The notes: generated by a model not told the origin, from the letters alone. 34,154 bases of DNA from Candidatus Limnocylindrales bacterium (GCA_036520795.1 DATDJA010000089.1:1-34154), one strand, 5' to 3'. Counted from the stretch's first letter, positions 2,450 to 28,508 are shown. A program made the numbers and translations.

Positions 2450-2451
2450 GG

Positions 2452-2850: not shown

Positions 2851-2861
2851 GCGCGTTTCTC

Positions 2862-4523: not shown

Positions 4524-4531
4524 GGCGTGAT

Positions 4532-5269: not shown

Positions 5270-5278
5270 GGCCGGCCC

Positions 5279-5764: not shown

Positions 5765-5776
5765 CGGTCCTCCCTG

Positions 5777-8318: not shown

Positions 8319-8322
8319 CGAC

Positions 8323-8757: not shown

Positions 8758-8796
8758 GCGAGCCTCCGTGGCCTTCCGTTTGCGTGGTCATGACGG

Positions 8797-10299: not shown

Positions 10300-10484
10300 G
10301 CGTTGCCCTTTCCGGATGCAGGGATCCCGATGACGTGACCGTCCCACCCAATCGAGGGCCGAACAAGGCCCGAGAGGGCGCGCGGGAGGGCGGGCGCCAT
10401 TGCCCGAAGGGGCGACCAGCGGTGCCCGGACGGATGCCCCGCGACCGACTGGCGCCGCGGCCCGGCTGAACCGACGATCGGTGG
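10300..10484. promoter_or_regulatory. Divergent intergenic region between the sheath operon and the cap/ATPase operon
   Basis: 185 bp is the only sizeable non-coding gap inside the CIS block, and it is flanked by divergent starts. I could not pick out clear -10/-35 elements. It contains a GGGATCCC palindrome at 10321..10328. Confidence 0.4.
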
Positions 10485-11210: not shown

Positions 11211-11217
11211 CCGGGCG

Positions 11218-14088: not shown

Positions 14089-14095
14089 GGGACGG

Positions 14096-14776: not shown

Positions 14777-16497
14777 CGTGGCCCCGACGTCCAGGTGAGG
14801 TCTGGGTAGGCGCCGCGGACGATTCGCACGAACTCCTCGAGGTGCCGGGGCTCGACGGCGTGGTCGTGCGGCGTCACGCCGCCCAGGACCTCCGGGTTGC
14901 CCATGATGCTCCGGCTGGCGTACGAGAACACCGACTGGATCGTCCACTTGCTGCCCTCGGGCAGCTTGTCCCGCATCGCCTGGACCAGCGACTTGGAGAA
15001 CCAGCCGTCGTACTTGTCGTTGTACGCGGTCTGGACCTCCTGTGCGAAGTCGCCCTGCTGGGGGACGCCGCCGACGATGAGGCCGACAGCGGTCAGGAGC
15101 GTCGTCGCCGTCGGGGCGCGCTGGGTCGCGTCGCGCAGGTACAGCGCATTGTGGAGATCGACGGCGATCTCGGCCGCCGTCTTGCCCGAGGCGTTGGCGG
15201 GGCCGGTGATGTCCTGGCCGGTGATCTTCTTGTAGTCGCCGTGGGTCCGCTGGTACTCGTCCTGGAGGCCGATGAGGTGGCCAAACTCGTGCGGCGCGGT
15301 CGTGGCGTCCATGAGCGGGAACCACATCCCGGCGTTCGCCCGGTCTTCCACCGACTGCGTGCCCGGGACCTTGTTGTCCTTCACCCGGATCGACTTCTCG
15401 GCGCCGGACCGGTTCTCGATCCCGAACCGGATCGGGATCTTGAGCCCGCCTGTCTCGACTGCGGCGAACTTGTTCCAGACCGTGTCGATCTGGGACTGCC
15501 AGGTGGCGATCGGCGCTGTCACGCCGGCGTCGGGCTTGAAATCGACCGGGACCCGGACGGTGAGCTCGCGCTGCTGGAGCACGTACTCGAACCGGCCCTG
15601 GACGGTGGTCGTCTCGCCCTCCGTCATGTGCTGGTCGATCTCGTTGGTGAAGGTCCCGGCCGCCTGGACCTGCAGCAGGTCGAGCGCCTTGCGCAGGTCG
15701 CTGCCGCTGAGCTCGTCCTGCAGGTCGCGGTCGAGGTGGTTGCCGGTCAGCGCCAGGTACTCCCGCTGGATGGCCAGGATCTCCTCGGGCTCACGACCCG
15801 TGAGCGCGTTGAAGATCTCGTCTTCCTCGGTGCCCCAGCCCGCCATCGCCTCCTTGAGGTGGACGGCGGTGACCTTCGCCCGCTCGGTCGCGGCGGTCGC
15901 CCGTTCGCCCTCGGTGAGGGTCGACTCGTCCGCGGTCGGTGCCATCGACTGGGTGACGCGCGCGAGCTCGGAGTCGTTGAGCTCGTCGCGCAGCTCCGCG
16001 TCGAGGTCCTTGTTGGCGACGCTCTTGTAGGCCTTGCGGATCTCGTCCATGTCGGCGGCCGTCCGGCCGGCGAGCGCGCCGTAGATCGCCTCTTCGTCGG
16101 TACCCCAGCCGCGCATCGCGTCGTCGAGGCGCCGCGCGATCTGGGTCGCCTGGTCCGGGGAGACTGCGCGCTGCACCGTGAGTCCCGGCCCGGCCGTCCC
16201 GCCGGCGGGCGTGCGCTGGAGGGCCTCGACGGTTGCCCGGTTGCCCGCGGTCGCCTGGAGGTCGACCACGCCGGCCGGATCGAGGACGCTCGCCTCGATG
16301 GTCGATGCGCTCGCCGCGAGGGGCCCCGCCGCCGGCTCCAGCGTGAGCCGGGGCCCGCCGGTCGCGGGGGCGGCGGCAGACGACCGGCCGGCCGGCGATC
16401 GCGTGGCGCGGGTCTGCATGCCGGCGATCGTATCGACGTGCCCCGGGATCGGGCTGCCCATTGGGGCAGACTTCCGGGCGGTCGTGGCCGAGGCCAT
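14773..16497 (-). CDS. Annexin-repeat / metzincin-like zinc metalloprotease fusion (CIS cargo candidate A)
   Basis: The N-terminal ~115 aa are low complexity and carry the DLQATAGNRATVEALQR motif. Two annexin repeats follow (GWGTDEEAIYGALAGRTAADMDEIRKAYKSVANKDLDAELRDELNDSEL and GWGTEEDEIFNALTGREPEEILAIQREYLALTGNHLDRDLQDELSGSDL). The zinc site is APHEFGHLIGLQDEY, with a candidate Met-turn at SRSIMG. No Sec signal peptide. Alternative starts at 16461 and 16419. Confidence 0.88.
   Translation of the reverse strand: MASATTARKSAPMGSPIPGHVDTIAGMQTRATRSPAGRSSAAAPATGGPRLTLEPAAGPLAASASTIEASVLDPAGVVDLQATAGNRATVEALQRTPAGGTAGPGLTVQRAVSPDQATQIARRLDDAMRGWGTDEEAIYGALAGRTAADMDEIRKAYKSVANKDLDAELRDELNDSELARVTQSMAPTADESTLTEGERATAATERAKVTAVHLKEAMAGWGTEEDEIFNALTGREPEEILAIQREYLALTGNHLDRDLQDELSGSDLRKALDLLQVQAAGTFTNEIDQHMTEGETTTVQGRFEYVLQQRELTVRVPVDFKPDAGVTAPIATWQSQIDTVWNKFAAVETGGLKIPIRFGIENRSGAEKSIRVKDNKVPGTQSVEDRANAGMWFPLMDATTAPHEFGHLIGLQDEYQRTHGDYKKITGQDITGPANASGKTAAEIAVDLHNALYLRDATQRAPTATTLLTAVGLIVGGVPQQGDFAQEVQTAYNDKYDGWFSKSLVQAMRDKLPEGSKWTIQSVFSYASRSIMGNPEVLGGVTPHDHAVEPRHLEEFVRIVRGAYPDLTWTSGPR
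15253..15294. repeat. 42-nt segment, inverted near-copy of 18476..18517 (zinc-site codons)
   Basis: The reverse complement ccgcacgagtttggccacctcatcggcctccaggacgagtac matches 18476..18517 at 39 of 42 positions. All 3 differences are synonymous third positions. Confidence 0.9.
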
Positions 16498-16521
16498 TGC
16501 GGAGGCTGCCGCGGTGGCCGA

Positions 16522-16541
16522 TCCTGTAGTCAGCTACAGGA
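16522..16541. promoter_or_regulatory. 8-bp perfect inverted repeat (TCCTGTAG-tcag-CTACAGGA) overlapping the Shine-Dalgarno of the DUF4157 gene
   Basis: Read directly: 16522..16529 is the reverse complement of 16534..16541. AGGAGG at 16538..16543 lies 6 nt before ATG 16550. The repeat sits in the ~52-bp gap between the two divergent cargo operons. Confidence 0.5.
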
Positions 16542-16549
16542 GGACCGCC

Positions 16550-17251
16550 ATGCGCGATTTCGAGTTGGAAGCCGCCCGCGGCGTCCCGATTGCACCGGAG
16601 CGTGACCTGCCCACGCCGGCGACGGCCGAGTCAGCCCCGGTCGCCCCGGGTCGCTCGCCCGCGCTCGACGCGGCGACGCTGATGCACCTGCAGCGGACCG
16701 CCGGCAATGCCGGGGTCGTGCAGATGCTGGCGGGCGAGGATGAGCAGGTTTCGCCGGTCCACGACGTAGTCGGGTCGGGCGGCGGCTCGGCGCTCGACGC
16801 CGGGACCCAGTCGACGATGGAGTCGGCGTTCGGCCAGTCGTTCGACAACGTCCGCGTCCACACCGACGACCAGGCGTCGCAGTCGGCGGAGTCCGTCGGC
16901 GCGAACGCCTATACGGTCGGCTCGGACATCGTGTTCAAGAGCGGCCAGTTCGATCCCGGCAGTGCATCGGGCCAGAAGACCATCGCGCATGAGCTGGCCC
17001 ACGTCGTCCAGCAGTCGCGTGGGCCGGTCGACGGTTCGGAGGCGGCCGGCGGCATCCGCGTCAGCGACCCGTCGGACCGCTTCGAGCGCGCCGCCGACGC
17101 GACCGCGGAGCAGGTGATGGCCTCGGTCTCGTCCTCGCAGCCGTCCGCGTCGGATGCCGGCGCGCTGCAGCGGGAGGAAGACCCGCTGTCCGCCCCCGCC
17201 GCCGTCCAGCGCGAGGCGCTGCCCGAGGAAGAGGAAGAGCCGGGGAGCTGA
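16550..17251 (+). CDS. DUF4157 (eCIS-associated HExxH) domain protein
   Basis: ATG at 16550 with a perfect AGGAGG SD. The N-terminal motif is MHLQRTAGNAGVVQMLAG. The DUF4157 core is LDAGTQSTMESAFGQSFDNVRVHTDDQASQSAESVGANAYTVGSDIVFKSGQFDPGSASGQKTIAHELAHVVQQ. The tail is acidic (EEEEEPGS). The track ORF start at 16178 lies inside the opposite-strand gene. Confidence 0.88.
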   Translation: MRDFELEAARGVPIAPERDLPTPATAESAPVAPGRSPALDAATLMHLQRTAGNAGVVQMLAGEDEQVSPVHDVVGSGGGSALDAGTQSTMESAFGQSFDNVRVHTDDQASQSAESVGANAYTVGSDIVFKSGQFDPGSASGQKTIAHELAHVVQQSRGPVDGSEAAGGIRVSDPSDRFERAADATAEQVMASVSSSQPSASDAGALQREEDPLSAPAAVQREALPEEEEEPGS

Positions 17252-17254
17252 TCG

Positions 17255-19060
17255 ATGGCGGGCCCGGGCGCGCAACGCGTCCAGCACGGAGACGATCGCC
17301 AACCGGGGGAACGCGGCGGCACCGCCGACCTGGCCCCCGGTCGCGACGACGCGGTCGACCTCGGCGCGATCGGGGCGGGCCCGCGCCGGCTGCCCGTGCA
17401 CGCCGCCTCATCGATGGTCGTCATGGCGCTCCAGCGCAGCGCGGGCAACGCCGCCGTGCAATCGCTGCTCGGGCCTCGCCCCTCGCTCCGCCTCCAGCGC
17501 GACGACGCGCCCGGGGCGACGCCCGTGGCCCCCGGAGCCTCGGGCGCCGGGGCCGCCGCGGCGCCGGCCCCACCCGCGAGGACCGCCCTCAACCCCGGCG
17601 ACTCGAGCGTCGAGGTGGGGGAGCTGCAGCAGGCGCTGAACGCGCTCGGCGCGGCGGTGCCGCCGCTGCGGATCACGGCGCTGTACGGCCCCGAGACCAC
17701 GGCCGCGGTGACCGCGTTCCAGGCGTCGCACCCGCCGCTCATCCCGGACGGCATCTGCGGCCTGCCGACGTGGGCGAAGGTGGACGAGCTCGCCCCGCGC
17801 GTCTCGCGCCAGGGACGCAGCGTCGTCGAAGGCCCGGCCGAGGGCGAGCCGCGGGGGACGCCGCTCGGGGGGACCATCCACCCGACGGTGCGCCGCACGT
17901 CGACCGGGCCGGCGGTCGAGGAGCTGCAGCAGAAGCTCAACACGATCCCGTCCGACCAGGTACCGACGCTGCTCGACGTTGACGGCAAGTTCGGTCGGAT
18001 CACCCGGCAGGCCGTGATCGAGTTCCAGCAGTCCCGAACGCCGCCGCTCGTCGCCGACGGCGTCGTGGGGCCGTTGACGTGGTCCGCGCTCGACGCGGTG
18101 GCAGGCCCGGTGACCGTCGGCCGCGAGTCGTTCGACTGGGAGCAGCGAGCCGAGGGCACGATCACCGGGGGCCCGTCGCGGTTCACGTGGCGCCTCCTCG
18201 ACGACAAGCTCCAGGTGACCGTGAACCTGCGCTTCACGGGGTCGCCCAGCCACCCGCGCGTCGCCCAGTGGCGTACCGACATCACGAGCGTGTGGAACAC
18301 GTTCCGGTTCGAGAACCCCGACGACCCCGGGCACCCGCTGGACCTCGAGTTCGTCGTCGGGACCGGGACGCCCGCCGACGCGTCCGTGGCGGTCGTCGTG
18401 ACCCCGGCCGGGACGACCCCCGGGCGCTCGGACTCGGCGAACTGGCACACGGGCGACACGGACCCGGGGCTCGCGCCGCACGAGTTCGGACACCTCATCG
18501 GGCTCCAGGACGAGTACAACCGGGCACCGGAGCAGTACGCGGCGGTGACCGGCGAGCAGGCGCCGATCGGCCGGGTCGATGCCCCCCTCGACGCGGCCGG
18601 CAACCCCGTGGCCCCCGAGGTCATTGCGGCGGAGATGCGCACGGCGGTCACGGGGGCGGCCGCCGGCCGCGGCGCGGCGGCGCGGGCGGTCGTCACGAAG
18701 TACAGCCTCCGCCAGGGCGCCTTCAGCCAGCGCATCGCCCTCGCCTACGAGACCGCGAACGCGGGCAGCATGCTGCGCGAGGACTTCGGTCCGGCCGGCT
18801 TCGTGATCGTCAACGACCCGGCCGGGACCATGGGCAACGACGTCGCGGCGCGGATTCCGGGCCAGTTCGACACCGCCGGCAACGAGGCGGTGGCGGTCGA
18901 GCCGTTCCTGTACAGCAACCGCGGCATCATGGGCACCATGGCCAGCCTGAACTCGCCGATCAGCGCACATGACCACCCCGTGGCCGAGCGGCACGTGCGC
19001 CACTTCCGGGACATCGTCCGGCGGAACCGGCCCGGCACGTGGCGGACGGTCCGGCGCTGA
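17255..19060 (+). CDS. Peptidoglycan-binding-domain / metzincin-like zinc metalloprotease fusion (CIS cargo candidate B)
   Basis: The N-terminal motif is MALQRSAGNAAVQSLLG. Two PG_binding_1-like domains are present (VEVGELQQALNALG...YGPETTAAVTAFQAS...DGICGLPTWAKV and PAVEELQQKLN...VDGKFGRITRQAVIEFQQS...DGVVGPLTWSAL). The zinc site is APHEFGHLIGLQDEY, with a candidate Met-turn at NRGIMG. The C-terminal ~290 aa are paralogous to protease A. Confidence 0.88.
   Translation: MAGPGAQRVQHGDDRQPGERGGTADLAPGRDDAVDLGAIGAGPRRLPVHAASSMVVMALQRSAGNAAVQSLLGPRPSLRLQRDDAPGATPVAPGASGAGAAAAPAPPARTALNPGDSSVEVGELQQALNALGAAVPPLRITALYGPETTAAVTAFQASHPPLIPDGICGLPTWAKVDELAPRVSRQGRSVVEGPAEGEPRGTPLGGTIHPTVRRTSTGPAVEELQQKLNTIPSDQVPTLLDVDGKFGRITRQAVIEFQQSRTPPLVADGVVGPLTWSALDAVAGPVTVGRESFDWEQRAEGTITGGPSRFTWRLLDDKLQVTVNLRFTGSPSHPRVAQWRTDITSVWNTFRFENPDDPGHPLDLEFVVGTGTPADASVAVVVTPAGTTPGRSDSANWHTGDTDPGLAPHEFGHLIGLQDEYNRAPEQYAAVTGEQAPIGRVDAPLDAAGNPVAPEVIAAEMRTAVTGAAAGRGAAARAVVTKYSLRQGAFSQRIALAYETANAGSMLREDFGPAGFVIVNDPAGTMGNDVAARIPGQFDTAGNEAVAVEPFLYSNRGIMGTMASLNSPISAHDHPVAERHVRHFRDIVRRNRPGTWRTVRR
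18476..18517. repeat. 42-nt segment, inverted near-copy of 15253..15294
   Basis: ccgcacgagttcggacacctcatcgggctccaggacgagtac matches the reverse complement of 15253..15294 at 39 of 42 positions. Confidence 0.9.
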
Positions 19061-19788
19061 TGGGCGAACCGAGCGAGGCGCTGGTCCGGTACCGGCGGAC
19101 CGGCGGGCGACCCCCGAGCGACGACGAGGCCCTCGACGTCGCGGACGACGGGTCGTTCACCGCGCGCCGGACGGTCGCCGGCGCGCGGGTCGGGACCTTC
19201 GCGGGCCGGCTGGCGTCCGGGCGCGTCGAGGCGCTCCGCGAGGCCGTCGACGCGGTTCGCGACGCGCATGACGTCCAGGTCGCGACGCCGCTCGACGGCG
19301 CGACCGAGGTGCTCGAGGCGGGCGGGCACACGACACGGACGGGCTCCAACGAACGCCCGACGGACCCGTGGAAGGCGCTCGTCGAGACCGTGCGTTCCAT
19401 GCTCGACGAGGACGCCGTCGCCGATCCGCTGGCGGCGATCGAGCTCACGGCGACGTCCCGCGAGGCCGCCCTCACTCAGGCCGGGCCGGCACCGGTCGAG
19501 ATCGACCTCGGGTCGGTGACGCTGCGCGTGGTCCGGATCGACACCGCAGGGCTCGTGCTCGGCCGGTGGCAGGCGCGGCTCCAGGACGCGGGCGACGAGG
19601 ACACCGCCGAGCCGCCCCCTGCGTGGACATCGGCCGCCGCCGGCTGGCGAGCGACCCTCCCGTTCTCGCACGGGCTCGAGCTCGCGGACGGCGACTGGCT
19701 CCAGGTGTGGGTCTTCGCGACGATCCGGGATGCCGCCGGCGACGGCGGCGAGCGCGCCGCCCGCCTGTTCGTCGCCGTTCCCGGATGA
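19060..19788 (+). CDS. Protease-associated partner protein B (candidate inhibitor/immunity or loading adaptor), paralog of 14096..14776
   Basis: ATG 19060 overlaps the protease TGA by 1 nt (TGATG). The product begins MGEPSEALVRYRRTGGRPPSDDEALDVADDGSFTARRTVAGARVGTFAGRLASGRVEALREAV. Shared blocks with partner A are LV..RR...PP...E.LDV..DGSF, VG.F.G.L, E.LE.GG and DPW..L...P.AAI.L. Confidence 0.75.
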   Translation: MGEPSEALVRYRRTGGRPPSDDEALDVADDGSFTARRTVAGARVGTFAGRLASGRVEALREAVDAVRDAHDVQVATPLDGATEVLEAGGHTTRTGSNERPTDPWKALVETVRSMLDEDAVADPLAAIELTATSREAALTQAGPAPVEIDLGSVTLRVVRIDTAGLVLGRWQARLQDAGDEDTAEPPPAWTSAAAGWRATLPFSHGLELADGDWLQVWVFATIRDAAGDGGERAARLFVAVPG

Positions 19789-19798
19789 GGGAGCGGCG

Positions 19799-20446
19799 CT
19801 AGATCAGGCCCTCGCGGATCGCGTACGCGACGGCGTGGGCGCGGTTGCGCAGCTCCAGCCGCGACGTCACGTCGTGGATGATGTTCTTCACGGTCCGCTC
19901 GGAGTAGAACAGGCGCGCCCCGACCTCGGCCGTGTCGTAGCCGTCGGCGAGCAGCCGGAGCACGGCCGCCTCGCGCTCGGTGAGGCCGGAGAACGTCAGC
20001 CCGCGCGGTGACAGGACCTGGCGCTGCAGTTGCCCGACCTGGCGCAACAGGCGGCCCAGGAGGTCCGGCGGCAGCGTGCCCTCGCCCGCCGCGGCCGACC
20101 GGATCGCGGCCGCCAGGTTGCCCGCGGTCGCCTCGCTCCGGCGGATGACGCCCGTCACGCCGGCCTCCGCGGCCGCGAGGAGCGAGCGATCGTCCACGCG
20201 CGACACGAGCAGCACGATCCGCCGCACGCCGCGGCCCCGCAGCGCGCGCATCTCCGCCAGCACCTCGGGCGCCACCTCCTCGGCGACGACCAGCGCCACG
20301 GAGTCCTCGGGCGTCGCGTCGTCGGCCACCACCACGAAGCCCTGCGCGCGCCGCAACTGGCTCGCGATGCCGGCCCTCGAGAGCGGATCGGACGCCCGGA
20401 CGGCGACCGGGATCGGGGCCTTGATGGGCATCAGTTCGGCGACCAT
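19799..20446 (-). CDS. LuxR/NarL-family response regulator with degenerate receiver domain
   Basis: The C-terminal HTH is LTEREAAVLRLLADGYDTAEVGARLFYSERTVKNIIHDVTSRLELRNRAHAVAYA. The receiver-like N-terminus lacks the acidic pair (VAVRASDP) and has VVAEEVAP where DxxMP is expected. The ATG at 20446 is preceded by GGGGAG with a 7-nt spacer. The track ORF start at 20548 is a TTG. Confidence 0.85.
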   Translation of the reverse strand: MVAELMPIKAPIPVAVRASDPLSRAGIASQLRRAQGFVVVADDATPEDSVALVVAEEVAPEVLAEMRALRGRGVRRIVLLVSRVDDRSLLAAAEAGVTGVIRRSEATAGNLAAAIRSAAAGEGTLPPDLLGRLLRQVGQLQRQVLSPRGLTFSGLTEREAAVLRLLADGYDTAEVGARLFYSERTVKNIIHDVTSRLELRNRAHAVAYAIREGLI

Positions 20447-20576
20447 TCGTGCACTCCCCATGGGTCCCCACCAACGGCAACCAGGGAAGGAGGCGGCAGC
20501 CGGAAGACCTCGGCGGACCCTACCGCGCGTGGGTGTCCGGCCAGTCAACGTGCACTTAACGGGCAGCCCGACATGC

Positions 20577-20599: not shown

Positions 20600-20613
20600 T
20601 ATCGGGCCATGCG

Positions 20614-21909
20614 ATGGGGTCCTGTTCCGGCGGCGATTGCGCGGCTACACTCACGCCCGTGGGTGCATCCGTCACGCTGGTCACACCTGCCCTGGCCGTC
20701 GAGCCGGGACAGGAAACCACCGCCGAGGTGCGGGTCCGGAATACGGGCAGCGTGGTCGACGAGTTCTCGCTTGACGTGATCGGCGACTCCGCCGGCTGGG
20801 CGGTCGCGGAGCCCGCGGTCATCTCCCTGTTCCCCGGCGCCGAAGCCACCGCCAAGCTCGTCTTCCGGCCGCCGCGCGCCGCTTCGACGCCCGGCGGCCT
20901 CGTCCCGTACGGGATCCGGGCCCGCTCGAAGGAGGACCCGGCGGGGTCCGCGGTGGAAGAGGGCTCGATCAACGTCGGGACCTTCCTCGACCCCTTCGCC
21001 GAGCTCGCGCCGCGCACCTCGCGCGGCTCGCGCACCGGAACCCACGACCTCGCGATCGACAACCGCGGCAACGCGCGGCTGAACGCCGAGGTCGAGGGCA
21101 CCGACGCCGATCGGAACCTGAAGTTCGACATCAACCCGCCGGGTGTCGTGGTCGAGCCCGGCATGGCCGGCTTCGCGAAGGTGCGGGTCAGCCCGGTCAA
21201 GCGGTTCTGGCGCGGCCAGCCCAAGACTCGCCCATTCCAGCTGTTCGTGAAGCCCGAGGGCGGCGTCCCGATCACGATCGACGGCACGCTGCTCCAGGAG
21301 TCGGTGCTCCCGTCGTGGTTCCTCAAGGCCCTGCTGGCGCTGATCGTGCTGCTGATCGCCCTCGTGCTCATCTGGCTGCTGCTGCTCAAGCCGACGATCC
21401 AGACCGCGGCCAGCGACGCCGTGGCCTCGCCGCTCGCGAGCCTCAAGGCGGACGTCAACGACGCGCTTGCCGACGCCGGCCTGGCGACGATGGGCCCCGA
21501 GCCGAGCGCCGGCGACGGCGGACCCACGCCGCCCGCCCCGACGGCCCCCGCACCCAGCGACGGCAGCGGCGGTCCGCCGTCGCCGACGAGCACGCCGGGC
21601 GTCGTGATCCCCGGGCTCGGCAACCCCGTCGACGGGCGCCTCGACAAGGCCAATCCGAGCATGACCGCCGCCGGCACCCTGTTCGTGACGGACCTCGTGT
21701 TCTCCAACCCGAACGGGGCGACGGGCAGCGTCGACATCAAGCGCGACGACACGTCCCTGCTGCACCTGCGGCTCGAGAACTTCCGCGACTACGACCTCCA
21801 CTTCGTGACCCCGATCGTGATCGCGCCGGGGCAGTCGCTCGTCCTGAGCCCCGCCTGTGAGACCGCCTGCGATCCGGCCGTCTTCTACTCGGGGTACCTG
21901 CGGCCCTGA
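20614..21909 (+). CDS. Bitopic membrane protein: two N-terminal beta-sandwich-like domains, one TM helix, Pro-rich linker, C-terminal extracytoplasmic domain
   Basis: 431 aa. LAVEPGQETTAEVRVRNTGSVVDEFSLDVIGDSAGWAVAEP and HDLAIDNRGNARLNAEVEG...VVVEPGMAGFAKVRV are CARDB/NEW3-like strands. The TM helix is WFLKALLALIVLLIALVLIWLLLL. The in-frame GTG at 20659 is an alternative start. Confidence 0.8.
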   Translation: MGSCSGGDCAATLTPVGASVTLVTPALAVEPGQETTAEVRVRNTGSVVDEFSLDVIGDSAGWAVAEPAVISLFPGAEATAKLVFRPPRAASTPGGLVPYGIRARSKEDPAGSAVEEGSINVGTFLDPFAELAPRTSRGSRTGTHDLAIDNRGNARLNAEVEGTDADRNLKFDINPPGVVVEPGMAGFAKVRVSPVKRFWRGQPKTRPFQLFVKPEGGVPITIDGTLLQESVLPSWFLKALLALIVLLIALVLIWLLLLKPTIQTAASDAVASPLASLKADVNDALADAGLATMGPEPSAGDGGPTPPAPTAPAPSDGSGGPPSPTSTPGVVIPGLGNPVDGRLDKANPSMTAAGTLFVTDLVFSNPNGATGSVDIKRDDTSLLHLRLENFRDYDLHFVTPIVIAPGQSLVLSPACETACDPAVFYSGYLRP

Positions 21910-21914
21910 GGCCC

Positions 21915-23972
21915 ATGGCGCGCCGCGTTGCCGCCGTCGCGCTGCTGCTGGCGCTGGGATCGGCCGTGCCGGCCACGCCCGCGGTTCGTGCCGTCGCCGG
22001 CGTGCAGGCGCCGCCCGCGCCGCGACCGGTGGTCTCGGCGCCCGTGCCGACGCCGCCCGGACGCACGCTCCTGGCCTCGAAGAGTGCCGGGGGCGGTTTT
22101 CCGAACGCGCTGTCCTGGACGCCGTCGATCTCGGCCAACGGCCGCTATGTCGCCTACGCGTCGACCGCGACCAACATCGTGCGGTCCGGCCCCGGCGCGC
22201 CCGCCGCCGGCGTGTTCCTGCGGGACATGAGCAATGGGCGGACCATCCGGCTCCCGATCCCGGCCAGCCTCACCCGCGGCGGCCGGGCGACCGAGCCCTC
22301 GATCTCGGCCGACGGCTCCGTCGTCGCGTTCACCTACCAGGAGCCGGCGACGGACGACGGCTCGGTCGTGCTCGCCTGGGACCGGTCGACCGGGCGCTCC
22401 CAGGTGGTCTCGCGGACCAACGCGGGCGGGATCGTCCAGGGCAGCAGTCAGCCATCGGTGTCGGCGACCGGGCGCTTCGTCGCCTACACGTCCACGCGGC
22501 AGAACCTCGTCGGCGGGCCGGGCGGCGACCCGGACGTGTTCCGCTACGACCGGGATCGGCAACGGACCGTGGTCGTGTCGGTTGGGCAGGTCTCCCCGCT
22601 CGATCCGGGCCGCGACACTGCACCGTCGATCTCGGCCAACGGCAACGTCGTGGCGTTCCAGTCGGACGGTGGGGACCAGCTGATCCCCGCCAACACCGGG
22701 CCCGGCGACCAGGTCTTCGTGCGCGACATCGCGGCCGAGCGGACGAGGCAGGTCAGCGTCGCCCTCGACGGCCCACCGAATGGGCCATCGGTCACGCCAT
22801 CGATCTCGGCCGACGGCAACGTGATCGCCTTCACCTCGGCCGCGTCTGACCTCGCGTCGATCGACGACAACGTCGTGCCCGATGTGTTCGTGCGGGACAT
22901 GCGTGCGGGCGCGACCACGATGGTCTCGGTCACGCCCGACGGCCGCGCCCCGACCGCCCGCAGCGAGGGGCCGTCGATCTCGGCGGACGGCCGGATGGTC
23001 GCCTTCCAGTCCGAGGCCCTCGACATCATCGGCCTCGGCGCGAGCGTCGCGACCGCGCACCTGGCCGCCGCGGCGGCGAAGCGGACCGAGGTGTTCGAAC
23101 GGGACCTCGTCGCGAACGAGACGGTGCTCGTGTCGGTCGGCCGGAACGGCCGGCCGGGCGGCCTGGTGAGCGCGCAGCCCGTCGTCGGCGGGAACGGCCG
23201 GTTCGTCGCCTTCGCCTCGACATCGCCCCGCCTCGTGCCCCGGGACACCCTGGGCGTGACCGACGTGTTCCTGCGCGACATGCCGCCCGTGCCGCGCCTC
23301 AACCCGTCCTCGATCGACCTCGGCACGCTCGACGTCGGCATCGCGTCGGCGCCGGGGGCAGCGATCCTCGGCAACAGCGGCTGGGGCCCATTGAGCGTCG
23401 GTCGCGCCGCGGTCACCGGCCCGGAGCGGCTCGACTTCGACGTTGTCGCCGATGCCTGCGACGGCCGGGTGCTCCATCGCACGGAGAAATGCACGGTGAC
23501 CGTGACCTTCACCCCGAGGGGCGGCGGCCGGCGGGACGCGACGCTCGCGATCCCCGACGGGTACACAGGTTCGCCCCGGACCGCCCGCCTGCGCGGCTCC
23601 GGGGTCAGGGCGCCGGTCAACCGGCCGCGGTTCGAGATCAGCCCCGAGGTCGGGGCGCCGGGGCTGGTCGTGGTCGCGACCGGATCCGACTTCCCGCCCA
23701 ACAGCCTGGTCCGCCTGTCATGGAGCCGCGGGACGACACCGACGATGCCGGCCGTACGAGCCGGCGCGGACGGCCGGTTCACCGCGCAGGTGCTGGTGTT
23801 CCACAATGACCTGACGGGCCCGCGCGACCTGCGTGCGGACCCCGTCACACCGGGGGCGTTTCCCCGGGCGACGGCACGGCTCCTGGTGACACGCCCGTCG
23901 GTCACGCCGCCGGGATTCCTCATGATCCGCCGCTTCATCGACCTCCCGCTCGTGCTCCTGATGCGAGGCTGA
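21915..23972 (+). CDS. Secreted seven-repeat PD40/TolB-like beta-propeller protein with C-terminal Ig-like domains
   Basis: The signal peptide is MARRVAAVALLLALGSAVPATPA. Seven repeats fit S[IV]SA[DNT]G..VA[FY].S (SISANGRYVAYAS, SISADGSVVAFTY, SVSATGRFVAYTS, SISANGNVVAFQS, SISADGNVIAFTS, SISADGRMVAFQS, VVGGNGRFVAFAS), several followed by DVF.RD. Two beta-sandwich-like segments follow. Confidence 0.85.
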   Translation: MARRVAAVALLLALGSAVPATPAVRAVAGVQAPPAPRPVVSAPVPTPPGRTLLASKSAGGGFPNALSWTPSISANGRYVAYASTATNIVRSGPGAPAAGVFLRDMSNGRTIRLPIPASLTRGGRATEPSISADGSVVAFTYQEPATDDGSVVLAWDRSTGRSQVVSRTNAGGIVQGSSQPSVSATGRFVAYTSTRQNLVGGPGGDPDVFRYDRDRQRTVVVSVGQVSPLDPGRDTAPSISANGNVVAFQSDGGDQLIPANTGPGDQVFVRDIAAERTRQVSVALDGPPNGPSVTPSISADGNVIAFTSAASDLASIDDNVVPDVFVRDMRAGATTMVSVTPDGRAPTARSEGPSISADGRMVAFQSEALDIIGLGASVATAHLAAAAAKRTEVFERDLVANETVLVSVGRNGRPGGLVSAQPVVGGNGRFVAFASTSPRLVPRDTLGVTDVFLRDMPPVPRLNPSSIDLGTLDVGIASAPGAAILGNSGWGPLSVGRAAVTGPERLDFDVVADACDGRVLHRTEKCTVTVTFTPRGGGRRDATLAIPDGYTGSPRTARLRGSGVRAPVNRPRFEISPEVGAPGLVVVATGSDFPPNSLVRLSWSRGTTPTMPAVRAGADGRFTAQVLVFHNDLTGPRDLRADPVTPGAFPRATARLLVTRPSVTPPGFLMIRRFIDLPLVLLMRG

Positions 23973-23978
23973 CGCCGA

Positions 23979-25040
23979 ATGACCGACGACACCCGGACGA
24001 TCTGCAAGCGCTGCGGATTCACGAACATCCCGGGCGATCAGTTCTGCGGCTCCTGCGGCACGTTCCTCGAGTGGGACGGGGTGCCCGCGGAGGGTGCCAC
24101 CACCGCCGTCGACGCCGCCCCGCCGCCCGACCCGCAGCCGAGCGCCCCCGTGGCGGCGCCCCCGCCCGACGACCAGGCGGGCTACGGCGACCTCGTCCGC
24201 TGCCCCGCCTGCGGGACGGCCAACGCGTCGAGCCGCACGTTCTGCCAGTCGTGCGGCGCCACCCTGGCGGCCGCGGAGCGCGTCGAGGCGGCGTCCCCGG
24301 AGCAGATCGCGCAGGCGGTCGCCTGGACGTCGGCGCCCGGCACCAAGGCCGGCCCGACCACGAAAACAGCCGGCGGGGACGCGTCGTCGGGGTCCCGCGG
24401 CATCCCGAGCTGGATCGTCTGGGTGGGCGTGATCGGCGTGCTCGTCGGGGTCGCGATCGTGCTCGGTGGCCTGGCGCTGCGGGGCGAGAACCCGGGCACC
24501 GGCGCGACGGGGAGCGTGCGTCCATCGGGGCCGGCGTCCAGCGATGGGCCGGGGTCGAGCGGCCCGGGCGACTCCACCGCGCCCGGCACGGCCGTACCCA
24601 TCCCGTTGTCGGAGGCCGAGGCGTCGTCGACCGTGGCGGCGAAGTTCCAGGCGAACAAGGCCATCGACGGTGACCCGGACACCAGCTGGCAGGAGGGCAA
24701 GGGCCAGGAGAAGGGCGAATGGATCGAGGTGACCTTCGATTCGTCCCGCGCCGACACGTTGCTCATCCGGAACGGCTACGGCGCCTCGCAGGCGCTGTTC
24801 AAGGGCAACCGGCGGCTCAAGGACGTCGAGGTCTCGGTCAACGGCGGGGCGCCCATCGCGGTCCGGCTCAAGGACGTGATCAAGGAGCAGGAGGTCGACC
24901 TCGGCGGCGTGTCGGGCGCGACATCAGTCCGGATCACGATCGTGTCGACCTACCCGGGGCAGAAGACCTCGGTCGCCGACACGCCCTTCGACGATGCCGC
25001 GGTGAGCGAGATCTCCGTGCTCGGCGTGCCGGGCGGCTGA
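23979..25040 (+). CDS. Double zinc-ribbon / single TM / discoidin (F5/8 type C)-like domain protein
   Basis: The zinc ribbons are CKRCGFTNIPGDQFCGSCG and CPACGTANASSRTFCQSCG. The TM helix is IPSWIVWVGVIGVLVGVAIVLGGLAL. The C-terminal domain includes FQANKAIDGDPDTSWQEGKGQEKGEWIEVTF...VSEISVLG. Confidence 0.82.
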   Translation: MTDDTRTICKRCGFTNIPGDQFCGSCGTFLEWDGVPAEGATTAVDAAPPPDPQPSAPVAAPPPDDQAGYGDLVRCPACGTANASSRTFCQSCGATLAAAERVEAASPEQIAQAVAWTSAPGTKAGPTTKTAGGDASSGSRGIPSWIVWVGVIGVLVGVAIVLGGLALRGENPGTGATGSVRPSGPASSDGPGSSGPGDSTAPGTAVPIPLSEAEASSTVAAKFQANKAIDGDPDTSWQEGKGQEKGEWIEVTFDSSRADTLLIRNGYGASQALFKGNRRLKDVEVSVNGGAPIAVRLKDVIKEQEVDLGGVSGATSVRITIVSTYPGQKTSVADTPFDDAAVSEISVLGVPGG

Positions 25041-25050
25041 GGGGAGCCGC

Positions 25051-26553
25051 GTGAGCGCGTTGGGGGCCGGAGTCGGCAAGGCCGTCGGGGGACTCGGCGG
25101 GCCGCAGATCGCCGCGATCGTGGTCGCGGGCGGCCTCCTGGTCGGCGCCATCGGGGGTGGGCTGGCCGGCGGCGGCGGATCGGGCCAGCAGGGGACGACG
25201 CAGGCCACGCTGTCGATCTACCCCTGTCCGGACTCGGGGCCGGCGCTCGCCACCGTCGGCTCGGGCCAGAAGTTCCTGGTCACCGGCAAGAACGCCGACG
25301 CCAGCTGGGCGCGCATCTACTACCCACTGCCCGGACGTACGGAGGCCTGGGTTCCGTCGGGCCCGCTCCAGGTCGACGGCTCGCTCGATGCGCAGCCGGT
25401 CGTGCCCTGCGCGCCGGTCGTCGCCGGCCCCGGCGCGTCGGTGGAGCCGAGCTCCAGCCTCACGGCCGTCGGGAACAACAGTCCCTCGCCGGGCCCTACG
25501 GCGGAGCCGACCATCACGCCGTCCGACAGCGGCCCGACCCTCGCCCGCTTCGACTTCGGCACGAGGATCGCCGGCGGTCCGCAGCGCTACTGCGAGCGGA
25601 CGCCGCGCTCGATCACCGTCAGCGTGCGGGCGACGGATGCCAACGACGTCGCCAGCGTCGTCCTGGCCTACCGCAAGCCGGGCGCCGCAGACTTTGCGAC
25701 CAAGCCGATGGTGCGCGTCGGCGGGAGCGACACCTGGCGCACGTCCCTGGCCACCGACGCAAACGGCATCACCGGGCCTGGCAGCCTGCGCCTCTACGTG
25801 AGCGCCACGGACCGCGACCCGACGCCGCACACCTCGCGGCTCCCGGCGCGCTCGATCGATGTCGTCGCGTGCGCAAACACCGGTCCCACGCTGGCCTCGC
25901 TGCGGGCCGCGCCGGGAACCGTGTCGACGAACCTCGCCGCGTGCCAGTCCAAGCCGAAGGCGACCGCGATCTCCGTTGAAGCGACCGACGTCGACGGCGT
26001 GGACGGCGCGACGCTCCACTACCGGCTGCCGGGCGACAACGCGTATCGCGACGCCAAGATGACGAAGAACGGGAACCGGTGGCGGACGACCGTGACGCCT
26101 GTCGACCAGCGGCCGAACGCGGACGGCAAGGCGTCGTACTACGTCACGAGCGACGACGACCTCGGCGAGTCTTCGAGGTCGGCCACGCAGACCTTCACGG
26201 TCAACCGCTGCAACTTCCCCGCCGCGATCCGCTACTCCGACAGCACCGGGACGCCGTTCTGCCCGCAGCGCACGACGCGCTTCTTCTACCTCGCCAACGA
26301 TCGGGACGGGCTCACCGCCTCGAGCGCGACGTTCGTCTACAAGTACCGGCTCGCCAGCGGCAAGATGAAGACGGCGAAGGTCAAGATGTCGGGCCAGGAC
26401 CAGGGCGGCAACTGGTTCTACACGGTCGACATCGTGCCGACCGCGAAGTGGGCGCTCGACGGGTCCATCGTGACGTTCCACGTCCAGACGAAGGACCGCT
26501 TCGGCGGCATCTCCAACGGCGGCAACTCCAAGACGACGCAGAGCTGCCCGTGA
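25051..26553 (+). CDS. Membrane-anchored SH3b-like domain protein with three Cys-initiated Ig-like repeats
   Basis: GTG start after GGGGAG. The TM helix is IAAIVVAGGLLVGAIGGGLA. The SH3b-like segment is ATVGSGQKFLVTGKNADASWARIYYPLPGRTEAWVPSGPLQV. Three ~90-100-aa repeats begin at CERTPRS, CQSKPKA and CPQRTTR. Confidence 0.78.
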   Translation: MSALGAGVGKAVGGLGGPQIAAIVVAGGLLVGAIGGGLAGGGGSGQQGTTQATLSIYPCPDSGPALATVGSGQKFLVTGKNADASWARIYYPLPGRTEAWVPSGPLQVDGSLDAQPVVPCAPVVAGPGASVEPSSSLTAVGNNSPSPGPTAEPTITPSDSGPTLARFDFGTRIAGGPQRYCERTPRSITVSVRATDANDVASVVLAYRKPGAADFATKPMVRVGGSDTWRTSLATDANGITGPGSLRLYVSATDRDPTPHTSRLPARSIDVVACANTGPTLASLRAAPGTVSTNLAACQSKPKATAISVEATDVDGVDGATLHYRLPGDNAYRDAKMTKNGNRWRTTVTPVDQRPNADGKASYYVTSDDDLGESSRSATQTFTVNRCNFPAAIRYSDSTGTPFCPQRTTRFFYLANDRDGLTASSATFVYKYRLASGKMKTAKVKMSGQDQGGNWFYTVDIVPTAKWALDGSIVTFHVQTKDRFGGISNGGNSKTTQSCP

Positions 26554-28490
26554 CCAAGGTCGTCGCGTTCCTGCCCAAGCTCGCGGTGTTCGGCGTCATG
26601 GTCGTCGTCGGCTTCATCGTCAGCTCAGCCGTCGTCCAGGCCTTCCAGGACCGCTCGCCCCGGTCGGCGACGACCGAGGTGCCCGACTACCTGCTCGCCG
26701 GCGCCCCCGACACGCCCGGCGCCTCCGCCGAGCCCATCGCCTTCAACGTCGAGCCATCGGGCTCGCCCGAGACCCTCGAGTCGCTCGCCCCTGCCGACCT
26801 GACCGCCGCCGCCGACACCGTCCTCGGCGCCGAGCCGGCTGTCTACAAGAACCCGTCGGGATTCCCGCGCATCCCGCCGATCTCGCAGTTCGACGGCGGA
26901 CCGTTCCAGGGCGCCAATTGCACGCTCACCTCGGGCGCGATGCTGGCCCGCCTCGGCTACGGCGTCGTCACCTCCGGCACGACCCTCCGCGGCCTCCAGG
27001 ACGACCAGGAGGGCGGCACGGACCTCAACGACCTCAACCAGGCGCTGTGGCGCGGCTACGGCGTGAGCTTCCCGACCGGCTACCTGCGCCCGGAGCAGCT
27101 CAAGAACCTCCTCGCGAAGGGCTACGGCACCGTCATCCAGGGCGACTACTCGAAGATCCCGCGCGCGCTGCGCCTGCAGAAGGACTTCCTCGGCGGGCAC
27201 GCGATCTTCCTCGACGGCTACTACCCGGGCAACCCGGCCAAGGACATCCCGGAGGCCTACTACGTGATCGACCCGCTCGGCCGGCCGCACTCGGGCTACG
27301 AGGGCGACTGGTGGCCGGCGTCGGTCGTCGACGACTTCGGTACCGCCTTCGGCGGCGGCGATCACATCCCGGCGATGTGGGCGTATCCGCCGGGCGGCGT
27401 CCCGCCCGAGGTGGTCGGTCCGGACGTGCTGCCGATCCCGCACGGCGGTGGCGGCGGTGGCGGTGGCGCCACCCCGGAACCCGGCGTGACACCGGATCCC
27501 GGCGAAAGCGCGTCCCCGTCGGTCCCGCCGGTCATCGAGCCCGGTGACCTGCCGCCGGTCACCCCGTCCGGCGACACGCCGCTCGACGGCGGCCCATTCC
27601 TCGGTGTCTTCGACCTGTTGCCGGTTCTCGAGATCTGCCTCGGCGACCCGCCGCCACCCGGCTGTCCGACGGGGGTCGAGGCGACCTTCCAATATGCCCC
27701 GGTCACCGTCCTCGAGATCCCACCAGGGCCCACGGTCACGGTGGTGTTCGTCGACTCCGATCGGCCCAACATCGCGATCGTCGGCTTCACGGTCGATCCA
27801 CCGACGCCGGCGACGGTCCACTACTGGCAGCACGACGGCACGCCGGCGAGCGTGCTGGGCCCATCCGCGATGTCGTCGATGACGCTGTTCGGCACGACCA
27901 TCCAGCTCGCGGAGCTCGACGTGCTCGCGTCAACGACGTACGACTTCCAGGCGACCGCGGGCGGCGGCCTGTCCGTCGGCAGCAGCCCGGTCGGCCAGTT
28001 CACGACCGGCAACGGCGTCGAACAGTTCAACGTGGCGCTGGCGCAGGTCGACGCGCCCGTGTTCCAGCTCGAGGCGGGGCTGTCGCCGTACCTCCACCTG
28101 GCGCCCGAGGCGTTCGCGCAGCCGCTCGTCCAGCTCGCCGACATCGGCGGCTCGTCGTGCGACGACGAGATCGCGTTCGGTGGCGTCGGCTATTGCGCGG
28201 ACCTGGACATCGTTCCCGCCGCAGACCCCGGCTGCACGCAGGCGGCGGTCACGTACGCCCTGTCCGGGATCGACGCCGACAGCGTCGTCGTCCGTGCGTT
28301 CCCGACAGAGGAGGGCACGACGCCCGACGGCGACGTGAGCCTCGAGGGCGTGCTGGAGGCCGGCGGCCCCGCGCCGTCGGGCGAGGTCGGGGTCGGCTGC
28401 CTGGCGTCGGGGCTGAGCTACCACATCGTGCTCGACGCGGTCGGCGACGACCGCGGAATCCTCGCCTCGGCGGACGTGAGCGTTCCCTAG
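26550..28490 (+). CDS. Membrane-anchored papain-like cysteine peptidase-fold protein with Gly/Pro linker and C-terminal beta-rich region
   Basis: GTG 26550 overlaps the upstream TGA (GTGA). The TM helix is LAVFGVMVVVGFIVSSAVV. The candidate catalytic residues are Q-x3-C (FQGANCTLTSGAM, Cys codon 26919..26921), His (FLGGHAIFLDGYY, 27198..27200) and Asp (YVIDPLG). The track ORF start at 26079 is a shadow extension into the previous gene. Confidence 0.7.
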   Translation: MTKVVAFLPKLAVFGVMVVVGFIVSSAVVQAFQDRSPRSATTEVPDYLLAGAPDTPGASAEPIAFNVEPSGSPETLESLAPADLTAAADTVLGAEPAVYKNPSGFPRIPPISQFDGGPFQGANCTLTSGAMLARLGYGVVTSGTTLRGLQDDQEGGTDLNDLNQALWRGYGVSFPTGYLRPEQLKNLLAKGYGTVIQGDYSKIPRALRLQKDFLGGHAIFLDGYYPGNPAKDIPEAYYVIDPLGRPHSGYEGDWWPASVVDDFGTAFGGGDHIPAMWAYPPGGVPPEVVGPDVLPIPHGGGGGGGGATPEPGVTPDPGESASPSVPPVIEPGDLPPVTPSGDTPLDGGPFLGVFDLLPVLEICLGDPPPPGCPTGVEATFQYAPVTVLEIPPGPTVTVVFVDSDRPNIAIVGFTVDPPTPATVHYWQHDGTPASVLGPSAMSSMTLFGTTIQLAELDVLASTTYDFQATAGGGLSVGSSPVGQFTTGNGVEQFNVALAQVDAPVFQLEAGLSPYLHLAPEAFAQPLVQLADIGGSSCDDEIAFGGVGYCADLDIVPAADPGCTQAAVTYALSGIDADSVVVRAFPTEEGTTPDGDVSLEGVLEAGGPAPSGEVGVGCLASGLSYHIVLDAVGDDRGILASADVSVP

Positions 28491-28508
28491 CCGGGGTAGG
28501 ATCGGGGC

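Follow-up and report, generated by a model that had tools for sequence, protein, structure and literature searches.

Accessory proteins of the Streptomyces contractile injection system (CIS) are the closest described counterparts of the locus studied here. In S. coelicolor, deletion of sco4256-58 phenocopies deletion of the CIS; the proteins are toxic in E. coli, the tube lumen looks empty in the triple mutant, and they were read as CIS "effectors" needed for CIS-mediated death (Casu et al. 2023, PMC10066040). CisA (SCO4242) is a membrane protein with N-in/C-out topology that is required for CIS firing in the same species, being needed for contraction and cell death while not forming part of the CIS particle (Casu et al. 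2025, PMC12237407). The zinc ribbon of Sco4242 lies at residues 5-28, and the top match of its C-terminal domain is PF07461 NADase_NGA / 7JI1 (Vladimirov et al. 2023, PMC10020575, Suppl. Data 7). SlpR/SCO4263, of the LuxR type, has been reported to regulate the Streptomyces CIS (SLP) cluster specifically (Nagakubo et al. 2021, PMC8505568).

Layout of the locus

We analysed a stretch of 34,154 nucleotides (DATDJA010000089.1:1-34154), here called the window, from the MAG of a soil bacterium of the Candidatus Limnocylindrales (Chloroflexota) (GCA_036520795.1). The original prediction, made from the sequence before its source was given, implied an actinobacterial host, which is wrong. The features of the window are the following, with the five operon genes designated P1 to P5:

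1..13335, type IId CIS genes: baseplate J, gp25, VgrG, tube and sheath on the minus strand, AAA ATPase on the plus strand
13357..19788, variable cargo island in the interval from the CIS ATPase to the LuxR gene: annexin-repeat protein, one PG_binding+HExxH protein and small unknown genes
19799..20548, minus strand, LuxR/GerE-type regulator (Pfam GerE, 8e-13), divergent from the operon, in the SlpR/SCO4263 position
20614..21909, plus strand, P1, Sco4256-4258-type CIS-associated bitopic protein (annotated start GTG 20659)
21915..23972, plus strand, P2, secreted protein with a PD40 beta-propeller of seven repeats and Ig-like (choice-of-anchor D) domains
23979..25040, plus strand, P3, CisA-type bitopic protein with zinc ribbons, TM helix and NADase-type discoidin domain
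25051..26553, plus strand, P4, Gly-rich TM anchor with putative SH3b-like domain and Ig-like repeats
26550..28490, plus strand, P5, TM anchor with putative C39-like cysteine peptidase and FN3-like domains (GTG start)

By ORF listing and GC3 phase, P1-P5 are co-directional on the plus strand from 20614 (or 20659) to 28490, and are separated by 5, 6 and 10 nt and then a 4-nt overlap, exactly as had been predicted. The divergent LuxR gene and the adjoining CIS and cargo island were borne out as well. The content of this island differs from locus to locus. On the other side of the structural genes, the contig end falls within the last baseplate gene, directly before the canonical cisA position as seen in L115 and other loci.

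A hydrophobicity scan found exactly one strong segment in each product, internal in P1 (240-258) and P3 (149-167), N-terminal and signal-like in P2 (5-23), and at residues 20-38 in P4 and 11-29 in P5. This agrees with the signal peptide or single TM helix expected for every product, and no such segment was found in nine other cluster proteins tested. The domains initially read from the sequence also held for the most part: those of P1, P2 and P3 are recovered by profiles or an AF2 model, that of P4 is weakly matched but consistent across orthologues, and that of P5 is supported through invariant residues.

Relation to the Streptomyces accessory families

Public annotation and homologue alignments place the start of P1 at GTG 20659, giving a protein of 416 aa. 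Its AF2 model contains tandem Ig domains, a helix at 219-272 (numbered from this start) and a C-terminal beta-sandwich, and P1 is predicted to have its tandem PapD/Cep192-like Ig module in the cytoplasm and, beyond a single TM helix, the beta-sandwich outside it. The Foldseek matches of the model (CEP192 SPD-2, FimC/PapD, RbmA, 2QSV and CsuC) are those of the HHpred list published for domain 1 of Sco4256 (Vladimirov et al. 2023, Suppl. Data 5). Homology to Sco4256 and to CisA was tested through the same-position proteins of other Streptomycetaceae clusters. P1 shares 37% identity over 254 aa (E 1e-55) with a Streptomyces "RICIN domain-containing protein" whose gene sits between the sheath/DUF4157 genes and the AAA ATPase of a CIS cluster, and 43.6% identity over the length of P1 with a Kitasatospora protein encoded directly after the baseplate genes. 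Streptomyces genes named "hydrolase" or "hydrolytic protein" are matched with E-values of 1e-34 to 1e-40.

The traits of Sco4256, Sco4257 and Sco4258 recur in P1: the conserved N-terminal tandem Ig domain of ~215 aa (PapD/RbmA/Cep192-like), one TM helix right after it at ~220-260, followed by the variable C-terminal domain, and a gene in or beside a type IId CIS cluster (in the window and also in L112 and L193), near a LuxR regulator. P1 also has the juxtamembrane "KPxxxSAA" motif. Judged by sequence and architecture, P1 is a homologue of these CIS-associated proteins. It differs from Sco4257/58 in its C-terminal domain, a small beta-sandwich with an invariant LENFRDYDxH motif instead of a RICIN or lectin domain. 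P1 is single copy, in contrast to the three tandem paralogues of S. coelicolor, and shares its operon with a PD40 propeller and a CisA paralogue. A scan of 185,579 species genomes for the exact LENFRDYD pattern gave only 45 stretches, almost all of them at CIS/LuxR sites.

P3 (353 aa) has zinc ribbons at residues 9-30 and 75-96 (Pfam DZR 6e-11, Zn_Ribbon_1 4e-9), with ~45 aa between them and ~50 aa from the second one to the TM helix, and a NADase-type discoidin domain at residues 213-347 (Pfam PF25302, 1e-18; NCBIfam NF047619, 2e-29). The cisA-position proteins of Kitasatospora and Streptomyces clusters match the same Pfam families and are hit by P3 in BLASTP (E 6e-12 and 3e-6, respectively), the first ribbon being 65% identical to that of the Kitasatospora protein. 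As in CisA, an N-terminal zinc ribbon and a second Cys-rich/zinc-ribbon element precede a single TM helix and a C-terminal NADase/F5-8-type C (discoidin) domain, ~150 aa in the CisA description and ~140 aa here, and the locus is a type IId CIS locus. On the other hand, the long unstructured cytoplasmic N-region (~285 aa in CisA) is absent from P3, where a 45-aa linker replaces it, and its gene belongs to the operon at the LuxR side of the locus, whereas cisA comes directly after the baseplate genes. A separate zinc-ribbon/TM/discoidin gene is found at the baseplate end of relatives (26 from 53 loci). Since relatives carry this canonical gene at the cisA position, P3 is a short-linker paralogue of CisA, and it may be either redundant or diverged in function.

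The likely true start of the LuxR protein is M35, at 20446, as orthologues begin with "MVAEPIPFK". It shares 46% identity (E 6e-51) with the LuxR protein from a Streptomyces CIS cluster and resembles SlpR/SCO4263 in being CIS-adjacent, although it is divergent from the membrane operon and not from structural genes. The window LuxR gene has no TTA codon and therefore no bldA-type control. The earlier view of an undescribed envelope module with no named pathway is overturned, as P1, P3 and the regulator all fall into CIS accessory families that are already described.

P2 matches PD40 (5e-23) and choice_anch_D (2e-9), and seven "PSISADG"-type repeats are readable in its sequence. In loci of Chloroflexota and of some Actinomycetota, its gene comes directly after that of P1 or close to it. 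TolB of the Tol-Pal system, also exported and with PD40 propeller repeats, was considered for P2 and rejected, given a score of 43.4 bits against the TIGR02800 cut-off of 343, no TolB N-domain and no Tol-Pal context.

In P4, a short cytoplasmic tail and a Gly-rich TM anchor are followed by a conserved, putatively SH3b-like domain and, after a PT-rich linker, by three Ig-like repeats, whose number varies from 1 to 3 among orthologues. The block at residues 57-120 is conserved; SH3_3 is matched in 3 from 15 orthologues (weakly, best E 0.037) and Big_7 in 8 from 15. No match to P4 was found in plasmids.

In P5, a TM anchor and a disordered linker precede a putative C39-like (papain-fold) peptidase domain at ~100-285 and two FN3-like domains. 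Q113, C124, H217 and D241 are invariant in 34 sequences. The model shows two FN3-like sandwiches after an alpha/beta domain predicted with confidence, in which C124 lies at the N-terminus of a helix (124-137) and H217 on a strand (216-225), at pLDDT 80-90, so that the Gln/Cys/His/Asp catalytic pattern, with Cys at a helix N-terminus and His on a beta-strand, is present. P5 itself has no Pfam match, the Peptidase C39 assignment falling below the Pfam threshold, and its Foldseek list is dominated by the FN3 part, with the fold not matched to a peptidase. PF13529 is weakly matched by 3 from 34 orthologues (best E 0.0055). A distant relative (P0328) with E 7e-27 to the P5 profile reaches 28.6 bits for Peptidase_C39_2 (cut-off 24) in the same region, and this transitive link makes P5 a putative C39-like cysteine peptidase. 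Relatives of this domain occur together with wall-hydrolase domains of the LysM and Peptidase_M23 types, and it also forms the C-terminal part of giant proteins (1100-2450 aa).

Conservation beside the CIS and competing readings

When co-occurrence with CIS loci was checked, P1-P5 were colinear in all 34 related species loci covering the region, which is therefore not a chance arrangement, and the LuxR gene was divergent upstream of P1 in 33 of them. In a set of 53 sheath-centred loci, P1 was no further than 10 kb from the sheath in 32, and LuxR in 37, Dormibacterota and Acidimicrobiia being among them. In several clades of Chloroflexota, as well as in some Actinomycetota, LuxR and the divergent P1-P2-P3 adjoin type IId CIS genes. 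In a sister Chloroflexota clade the order is sheath, AAA ATPase, LuxR, P1-P2-P3, with an alpha-amylase-like gene after P3; P4 and P5 are absent there, being seen only in the clade of the window. Domain fusions point the same way: in an acidimicrobial locus (L190), one protein encoded beside a CIS ATPase joins a zinc ribbon to the P1 Ig module, a TM helix and a PD40 propeller. At the cisA position of a Deinococcus CIS cluster lies an FHA-Ser/Thr kinase with a P1-type module.

We suggest that the operon, divergent from LuxR, is probably a membrane-side partner module of the cytoplasmic type IId CIS, with docking or firing and wall-acting functions. Such an expanded membrane partner module is the most likely reading because P1 and P3 are related to Streptomyces proteins required for firing. 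The original prediction had proposed docking or triggering of the neighbouring CIS from adjacency only; this part is now strengthened by the homology of P1 and P3, the identity of the LuxR regulator, the cross-phylum LuxR and P1-P2-P3 arrangement and the fusion. The idea of five genes as one indivisible CIS-linked unit did not stand, since the sister clade lacks P4 and P5, one genome has P1-P5 preceded by sugar-metabolism genes, with neither LuxR nor CIS within 10 kb upstream, and several loci have CIS and LuxR without the operon (L132, L133 and L149; in L149, LuxR adjoins the downstream dehydrogenase gene).

The last two of these exceptions would suit an ordinary envelope or wall-remodelling module, formed by P2, P4 and P5 or by the whole operon, that neighbours the CIS by lineage-specific synteny and has no role in it. 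PD40, SH3b-like, Ig and C39-like domains are generic in envelope proteins and, as the flanking housekeeping genes are also syntenic, simple vertical inheritance could account for much of the synteny within the clade. However, characterised members of the P1 and P3 families are CIS-specific, and shared regional ancestry cannot explain why P1, usually with LuxR and sometimes with P2, is CIS-adjacent in Dormibacterota, Actinomycetota and Chloroflexota. Together with the near restriction of the LENFRDYD pattern to CIS/LuxR sites and the fusion of PD40 to P1 and zinc-ribbon modules in L190, this makes a plain envelope module unlikely.

It is also improbable that P1-P5 are cargo of the CIS, that is, toxic effectors in or on the particle, with the ectodomains (the P5 peptidase among them) as delivered toxin or targeting domains. 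This reading follows from the publication of Sco4256-58 as "effectors", with their toxicity in E. coli and the empty-looking lumen of the triple mutant (Casu et al. 2023), and it would suit both the adjoining variable cargo island and the giant proteins, in which the C-terminal placement of the P5-type domain is typical of polymorphic toxins. Yet all five products have a signal peptide or an anchor, which no neighbouring cargo-island protein has, and the content and order of the operon are fixed whereas the island is variable. In the L190 fusion the P1 module shares its side of the membrane with the zinc ribbon, and the PD40 propeller lies across from them, which fits a resident N-in/C-out protein better, and P3 resembles CisA, which is outside the particle composition (Casu et al. 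2025).

A lysis cassette opening wall and membrane for particle release, like the holin/endolysin cassettes of tailocins and some extracellular CIS, could draw on the predicted membrane-tethered peptidase P5 (of a domain family co-occurring with LysM and M23 wall hydrolases), the SH3b-like domain of P4 and the glycan-binding type of discoidin domain in P3, but it is very doubtful. In Streptomyces, Roseiflexus and Deinococcota, related type IId systems do their work within the cytoplasm without being released. None of the products resembles a multi-pass holin, each having a single hydrophobic segment, and the conserved core P1-P2-P3 has no hydrolase, P5 being missing from the sister clade.

Proposed working and comparison with other membrane anchors

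As a membrane partner module of the CIS, the operon might work as follows. P1 and P3 would be single-pass proteins with cytoplasmic N-modules, tandem PapD/Cep192-like Ig domains in P1 and zinc ribbons in P3, and their Streptomyces counterparts (Sco4256-58 and CisA) are accessories needed for CIS membrane recruitment, firing and killing. Outside the membrane would lie the beta-sandwich of P1, the discoidin-type glycan-binding domain of P3, the secreted propeller P2, P4 and the tethered peptidase P5, possibly in one physical complex. These outer parts would bind the cell wall at the CIS docking site and may cut it, with the wall as a candidate substrate of P5. They could couple the envelope state to firing, or help to breach the wall after firing.

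A bolder version, which we put forward tentatively, is that Sco4256-type proteins are resident N-in/C-out membrane receptors and not luminal toxins, and that in Chloroflexota they build a dedicated trans-envelope CIS firing platform with the CisA paralogue, a PD40 propeller on the periplasm side and, in this clade, the SH3b/Ig protein and the tethered peptidase. If true, this platform would give the cytoplasmic CIS its so far missing equivalent of the T6SS membrane complex, linking wall or glycan status outside to baseplate triggering inside and cutting the wall locally at firing.

The likeness to the T6SS membrane complex (TssJLM) and to the fibre-like protein that anchors the Anabaena CIS to thylakoids is functional only, all being membrane anchors that would set the firing site; no sequence or domain homology to them was found, and none is expected. 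The components encoded in the window differ in being single-pass proteins with predicted wall-binding ectodomains, in a Chloroflexota host presumed to be monoderm.

The five-gene operon and its neighbours

Five co-directional genes were found in the window (G+C of 72%), backed by third-position GC phase and by the ORF listing, which reproduced the spacing originally claimed for them: 5, 6 and 10 nt, followed by a 4-nt overlap. The neighbourhood contains a cytoplasmic, type IId contractile injection system (CIS) and is organized as follows.

Features of the window (P1 to P5 from ORF listing and GC phase)
1..11204, minus strand: CIS structural genes (baseplate J, gp25, VgrG, tube proteins and sheath)
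11176..13335, plus strand: AAA ATPase of the CIS
After the ATPase: variable island with an annexin-repeat protein, a PG_binding/HExxH protein and small genes without assignment
19799..20548, minus strand: LuxR/GerE gene, after the variable island and divergent from P1
20614..21909, plus strand: P1
21915..23972, plus strand: P2
23979..25040, plus strand: P3
25051..26553, plus strand: P4
26550..28490, plus strand: P5, with a GTG start and a 4-nt overlap with the P4 stop
Downstream of P5: NDH-2 gene (18 nt off), then a GntR-aminotransferase gene

The public record places the P1 start at GTG 20659 (416 aa), where the alignments with homologues also begin. P5 gave no exact match in the assembly index, probably owing to a different start in the public annotation. 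A signal peptide or single TM helix had been proposed for every product, and the Kyte-Doolittle scan agrees: every product has exactly one strongly hydrophobic segment. P1 and P3 have it in their interior (240-258 and 149-167, respectively), P2 has a signal-like one (5-23), and in P4 (20-38) and P5 (11-29) it is an anchor at the N-terminus. The same scan found no such segment in 9 other proteins of the cluster. A TolB identity for P2, the PD40-propeller protein, was ruled out on score.

A scan of 19700-30000 for promoters and terminators came up empty, which makes it uninformative on the co-transcription of the operon. The NDH-2 gene (ndh, 28509-29867) begins after an 18-nt spacer (28491-28508) without a terminator-like site, so read-through from P5 may co-transcribe it with the operon. 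This gene is missing or displaced in many related loci.

Other observations concern the CIS side of the contig. Comparison with locus L115 (a close relative with a 93-94% identical sheath) indicates that the last gene of the baseplate module is broken by the contig end. In L115 itself, an IS3-family transposase ORF (L115:21038-21415) lies in the slot expected for the canonical gene at the cisA position, that is, after the baseplate genes. Within the structural block of the window, a 651-aa ORF (5777-7732, minus strand) had no Pfam match; it is very rich in G+C (0.80 at 6001-7000), its codon positions differ little, and its product may be tape-measure-like or of low complexity. The annexin-repeat protein (574 aa, 14773-16497, minus strand; Pfam Annexin 9.5e-25) lies between the CIS ATPase and LuxR, and homologues with 43-84% identity occupy the same place in several relatives. 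Since annexins are uncommon in bacteria, it may be a membrane-binding CIS cargo. The PG_binding/HExxH protein (17255-19060, plus strand) has two PG_binding_1 domains and the N-terminal motif 'ALQRSAGNAAV', which resembles the N-terminus, of DUF4157 type, found in eCIS cargo; Pfam made no DUF4157 call on it. The same slot upstream of LuxR holds giant proteins of ~2,570-2,770 aa in five other loci (L048, L050, L053, L058 and L066), at least two of them (L048 and L053) with a similar N-terminal motif, 'LQRMAGNSAV'.

Conservation and linkage to the CIS

The five genes form a genuine and conserved operon: P1-P5 are colinear in all 34 loci of related species that span the region, with LuxR divergent upstream in 33 of the 34. 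The CIS genes (AAA, sheath and tubes) are 1-6 kb past LuxR in most loci, and in five the gap is occupied by a giant protein of ~2,700 aa with an N-terminus like that of the PG_binding/HExxH protein of the window. Adjacency within the clade is by itself weak evidence of a functional link, since the flanking housekeeping genes are syntenic too.

Beyond the clade, a sheath-anchored scan listed 80 loci from at least 570 confirmed relatives, and among the 53 listed loci that span a complete 10 kb towards the ATPase we found the AAA ATPase in 43, LuxR in 37, P1 in 32 and P2 in 22, while 26 have the zinc-ribbon start at the cisA position. P1 homologues are found beside the sheath in Dormibacterota and with LuxR, sometimes also with P2, in Acidimicrobiia; in loci of Actinomycetota, P1 is paired with LuxR and a PD40 protein. 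In a sister clade, recovered by a metagenome scan seeded with its P3, the order is sheath, AAA, LuxR and P1-P2-P3, and the gene after P3 is unrelated and alpha-amylase-like. From these loci, including the sister clade devoid of P4 and P5, the conserved core is LuxR divergent from P1-P2-P3. The exact pattern LENFRDYD of the P1 family matched only 45 stretches in a genome scan and added no new lineages. The original prediction placed these families in an actinobacterial frame, which does not fit, as the window comes from a Candidatus Limnocylindrales MAG and the close relatives of P1 and P5 are without exception from Chloroflexota MAGs.

Some loci depart from this arrangement. In L195 (contig_9938 of MAG MFD04716.bin.3.469), P1-P5 are present and colinear, with neither LuxR nor CIS within 10 kb of the operon; upstream are sugar ABC transporter, LacI, GH116 and GH16 genes and two unassigned proteins (274 and 868 aa). 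In L149, LuxR adjoins the downstream dehydrogenase gene and the operon is absent, and in L132 and L133 CIS and LuxR are found with P1 absent within 4 kb.

The window LuxR shares 46% identity (E 6e-51) with the LuxR of a Streptomyces CIS cluster, and SlpR (SCO4263) is a reported cluster-specific regulator (Nagakubo et al. 2021, PMC8505568). Control by bldA was ruled out for the window gene, which contains no TTA codon.

P1 and P3 compared with CIS-associated proteins of Streptomyces

In plasmids searched by tblastn, P1 residues 5-221 match Streptomyces genes annotated as 'hydrolase', 'hydrolytic protein' and 'RICIN domain-containing protein' (E 1e-34 to 1e-40); pSCATT was also matched, and a full-length Kitasatospora homologue (43.6% identity) comes after the baseplate genes of its CIS cluster. 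The homologue in Streptomyces sp. NBC_01426 has sheath/DUF4157 genes on one side and genes for the AAA ATPase, DUF4255 and LuxR on the other, the same gene arrangement as in sco4253-4263. Pairwise BLASTP of P1 with this protein gave 37% identity over 254 aa (E 1e-55), spanning the N-domain, the TM helix and a juxtamembrane motif. Domain 1 (residues 2-215) of Sco4256 (NP_628430) was mapped to RbmA, CsuC, FimC/PapD, 2QSV and CEP192, with a TM helix at residues 219-250 (Vladimirov et al. 2023, PMC10020575). In the AF2 model of P1 (pLDDT 77), two Ig domains are joined by a long TM helix and a disordered linker to a beta-sandwich modelled with confidence, and Foldseek returned the same structures as that published list. 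By sequence and modelled structure, P1 is a Sco4256-58-type protein, the homology with the S. coelicolor protein, like that of P3 with CisA, being judged through positional equivalents in other clusters. The sco4256-58 triple mutant phenocopies CIS deletion (Casu et al. 2023, PMC10066040). P1 was also considered as a CisA homologue and rejected, because the zinc ribbons and discoidin C-terminal domain of CisA fit P3, and P1 fits Sco4256-58.

P3 combines a double zinc ribbon with an NADase-type discoidin domain (Pfam, NCBIfam). HHpred of CisA (Sco4242) mapped a zinc ribbon (5-28), a TM helix and a C-terminal domain (319-464) with NADase_NGA, 7JI1 and F5/8 type C as top matches (Vladimirov et al. 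2023, PMC10020575). The cisA-position proteins of Kitasatospora and Streptomyces clusters share the Pfam families of P3 and match it with E 6e-12 and 3e-6, respectively. In many loci of Chloroflexota, Dormibacterota and Actinomycetota, the post-baseplate gene opens with the same zinc ribbon and runs on into a long disordered stretch that is PE-rich; one full example (L151) then adds a second ribbon and 'PWWR', with a TM helix and a discoidin domain after them. A single genome can carry both genes (contig CAWHIA010000018.1 is in both L041 and L114), and P3 is therefore a short-linker paralogue of the canonical cisA-position gene. CisA (NP_628416) is needed for contraction and cell death (Casu et al. 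2025, PMC12237407), and predictions have it form a pentamer and touch the baseplate protein Cis11 with its cytoplasmic part. Roseiflexus reportedly lacks close homologues of CisA.

Fusion proteins indicate that the P1, P2 and P3 modules belong together, and they place the Ig module, by prediction, on the cytoplasmic side. In Acidimicrobiia, a single 635-aa protein adjoining the CIS ATPase (L190:5102-7087) joins the P1-type tandem Ig module to a zinc ribbon and, through a TM helix bearing a 'KP' motif, to a PD40 propeller (Pfam 3e-41). The CIS cluster on a Deinococcus taeanensis plasmid encodes at its cisA position (L242:13729-18570) a 1613-aa FHA-Ser/Thr kinase with a P1-type Ig module, a hint that phospho-signalling may feed into these CIS.

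P4, P5 and the role of the locus

P4 and P5 were found only in the clade of the window, and tblastn gave no match for either in plasmids. Past its anchor, P4 has a conserved block of ~60 aa, with weak SH3_3 matches in 3 of 15 orthologues, and then a PT-rich linker and Ig-like repeats (Big_7 in 8 of 15). Its orthologues come in two sizes, ~326 aa and ~500-540 aa, which differ by repeats gained or lost behind the linker.

In P5, residues Q113, C124, H217 and D241 are invariant, and the model combines two FN3-like sandwiches with a confidently modelled alpha/beta domain in which C124 lies at the start of a helix. Pfam made no call on P5 itself, a PDB sequence search with its profile gave a marginal FN3 match only, and Foldseek with the whole model returned no peptidase fold, its list being dominated by tandem FN3 domains. 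The profile search of 1.84 billion representatives recovered 501 relatives, mostly the peptidase domain alone. One has Peptidase_C39_2 above the Pfam threshold on that region, flanked by LysM and Peptidase_M23, and two others join the domain to M23; these combinations point to a predicted wall-directed activity. P4 and P5 are a clade-specific extension, probably with wall-binding and peptidase activities.

No named pathway had been recognized for this operon. By homology and synteny, the P1-P3 core and its regulator correspond to the accessory repertoire of type IId CIS. A membrane docking or firing module with extracytoplasmic wall-associated parts is the best-supported mechanism, and we regard it as reasonably probable. 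Our literature search found no papers linking Limnocylindria to CIS or describing the LuxR and P1-P5 operon.

CisA is, to our knowledge, the sole known factor in how cytoplasmic CIS meet the membrane and commit to firing. The locus adds concrete candidate partners for the docking and trigger step, raises the question of whether Sco4256-type 'effectors' are cargo or receptors, and is relevant to CIS research. Type IId CIS of Chloroflexota, Dormibacterota and Actinomycetota commonly have modules of the CisA and Sco4256 types; here both share a conserved, LuxR-linked operon with a PD40 propeller. To this are added the fusions (zinc ribbon, Ig, TM and PD40; FHA-kinase and Ig) and the wall-binding and peptidase additions predicted in one clade.
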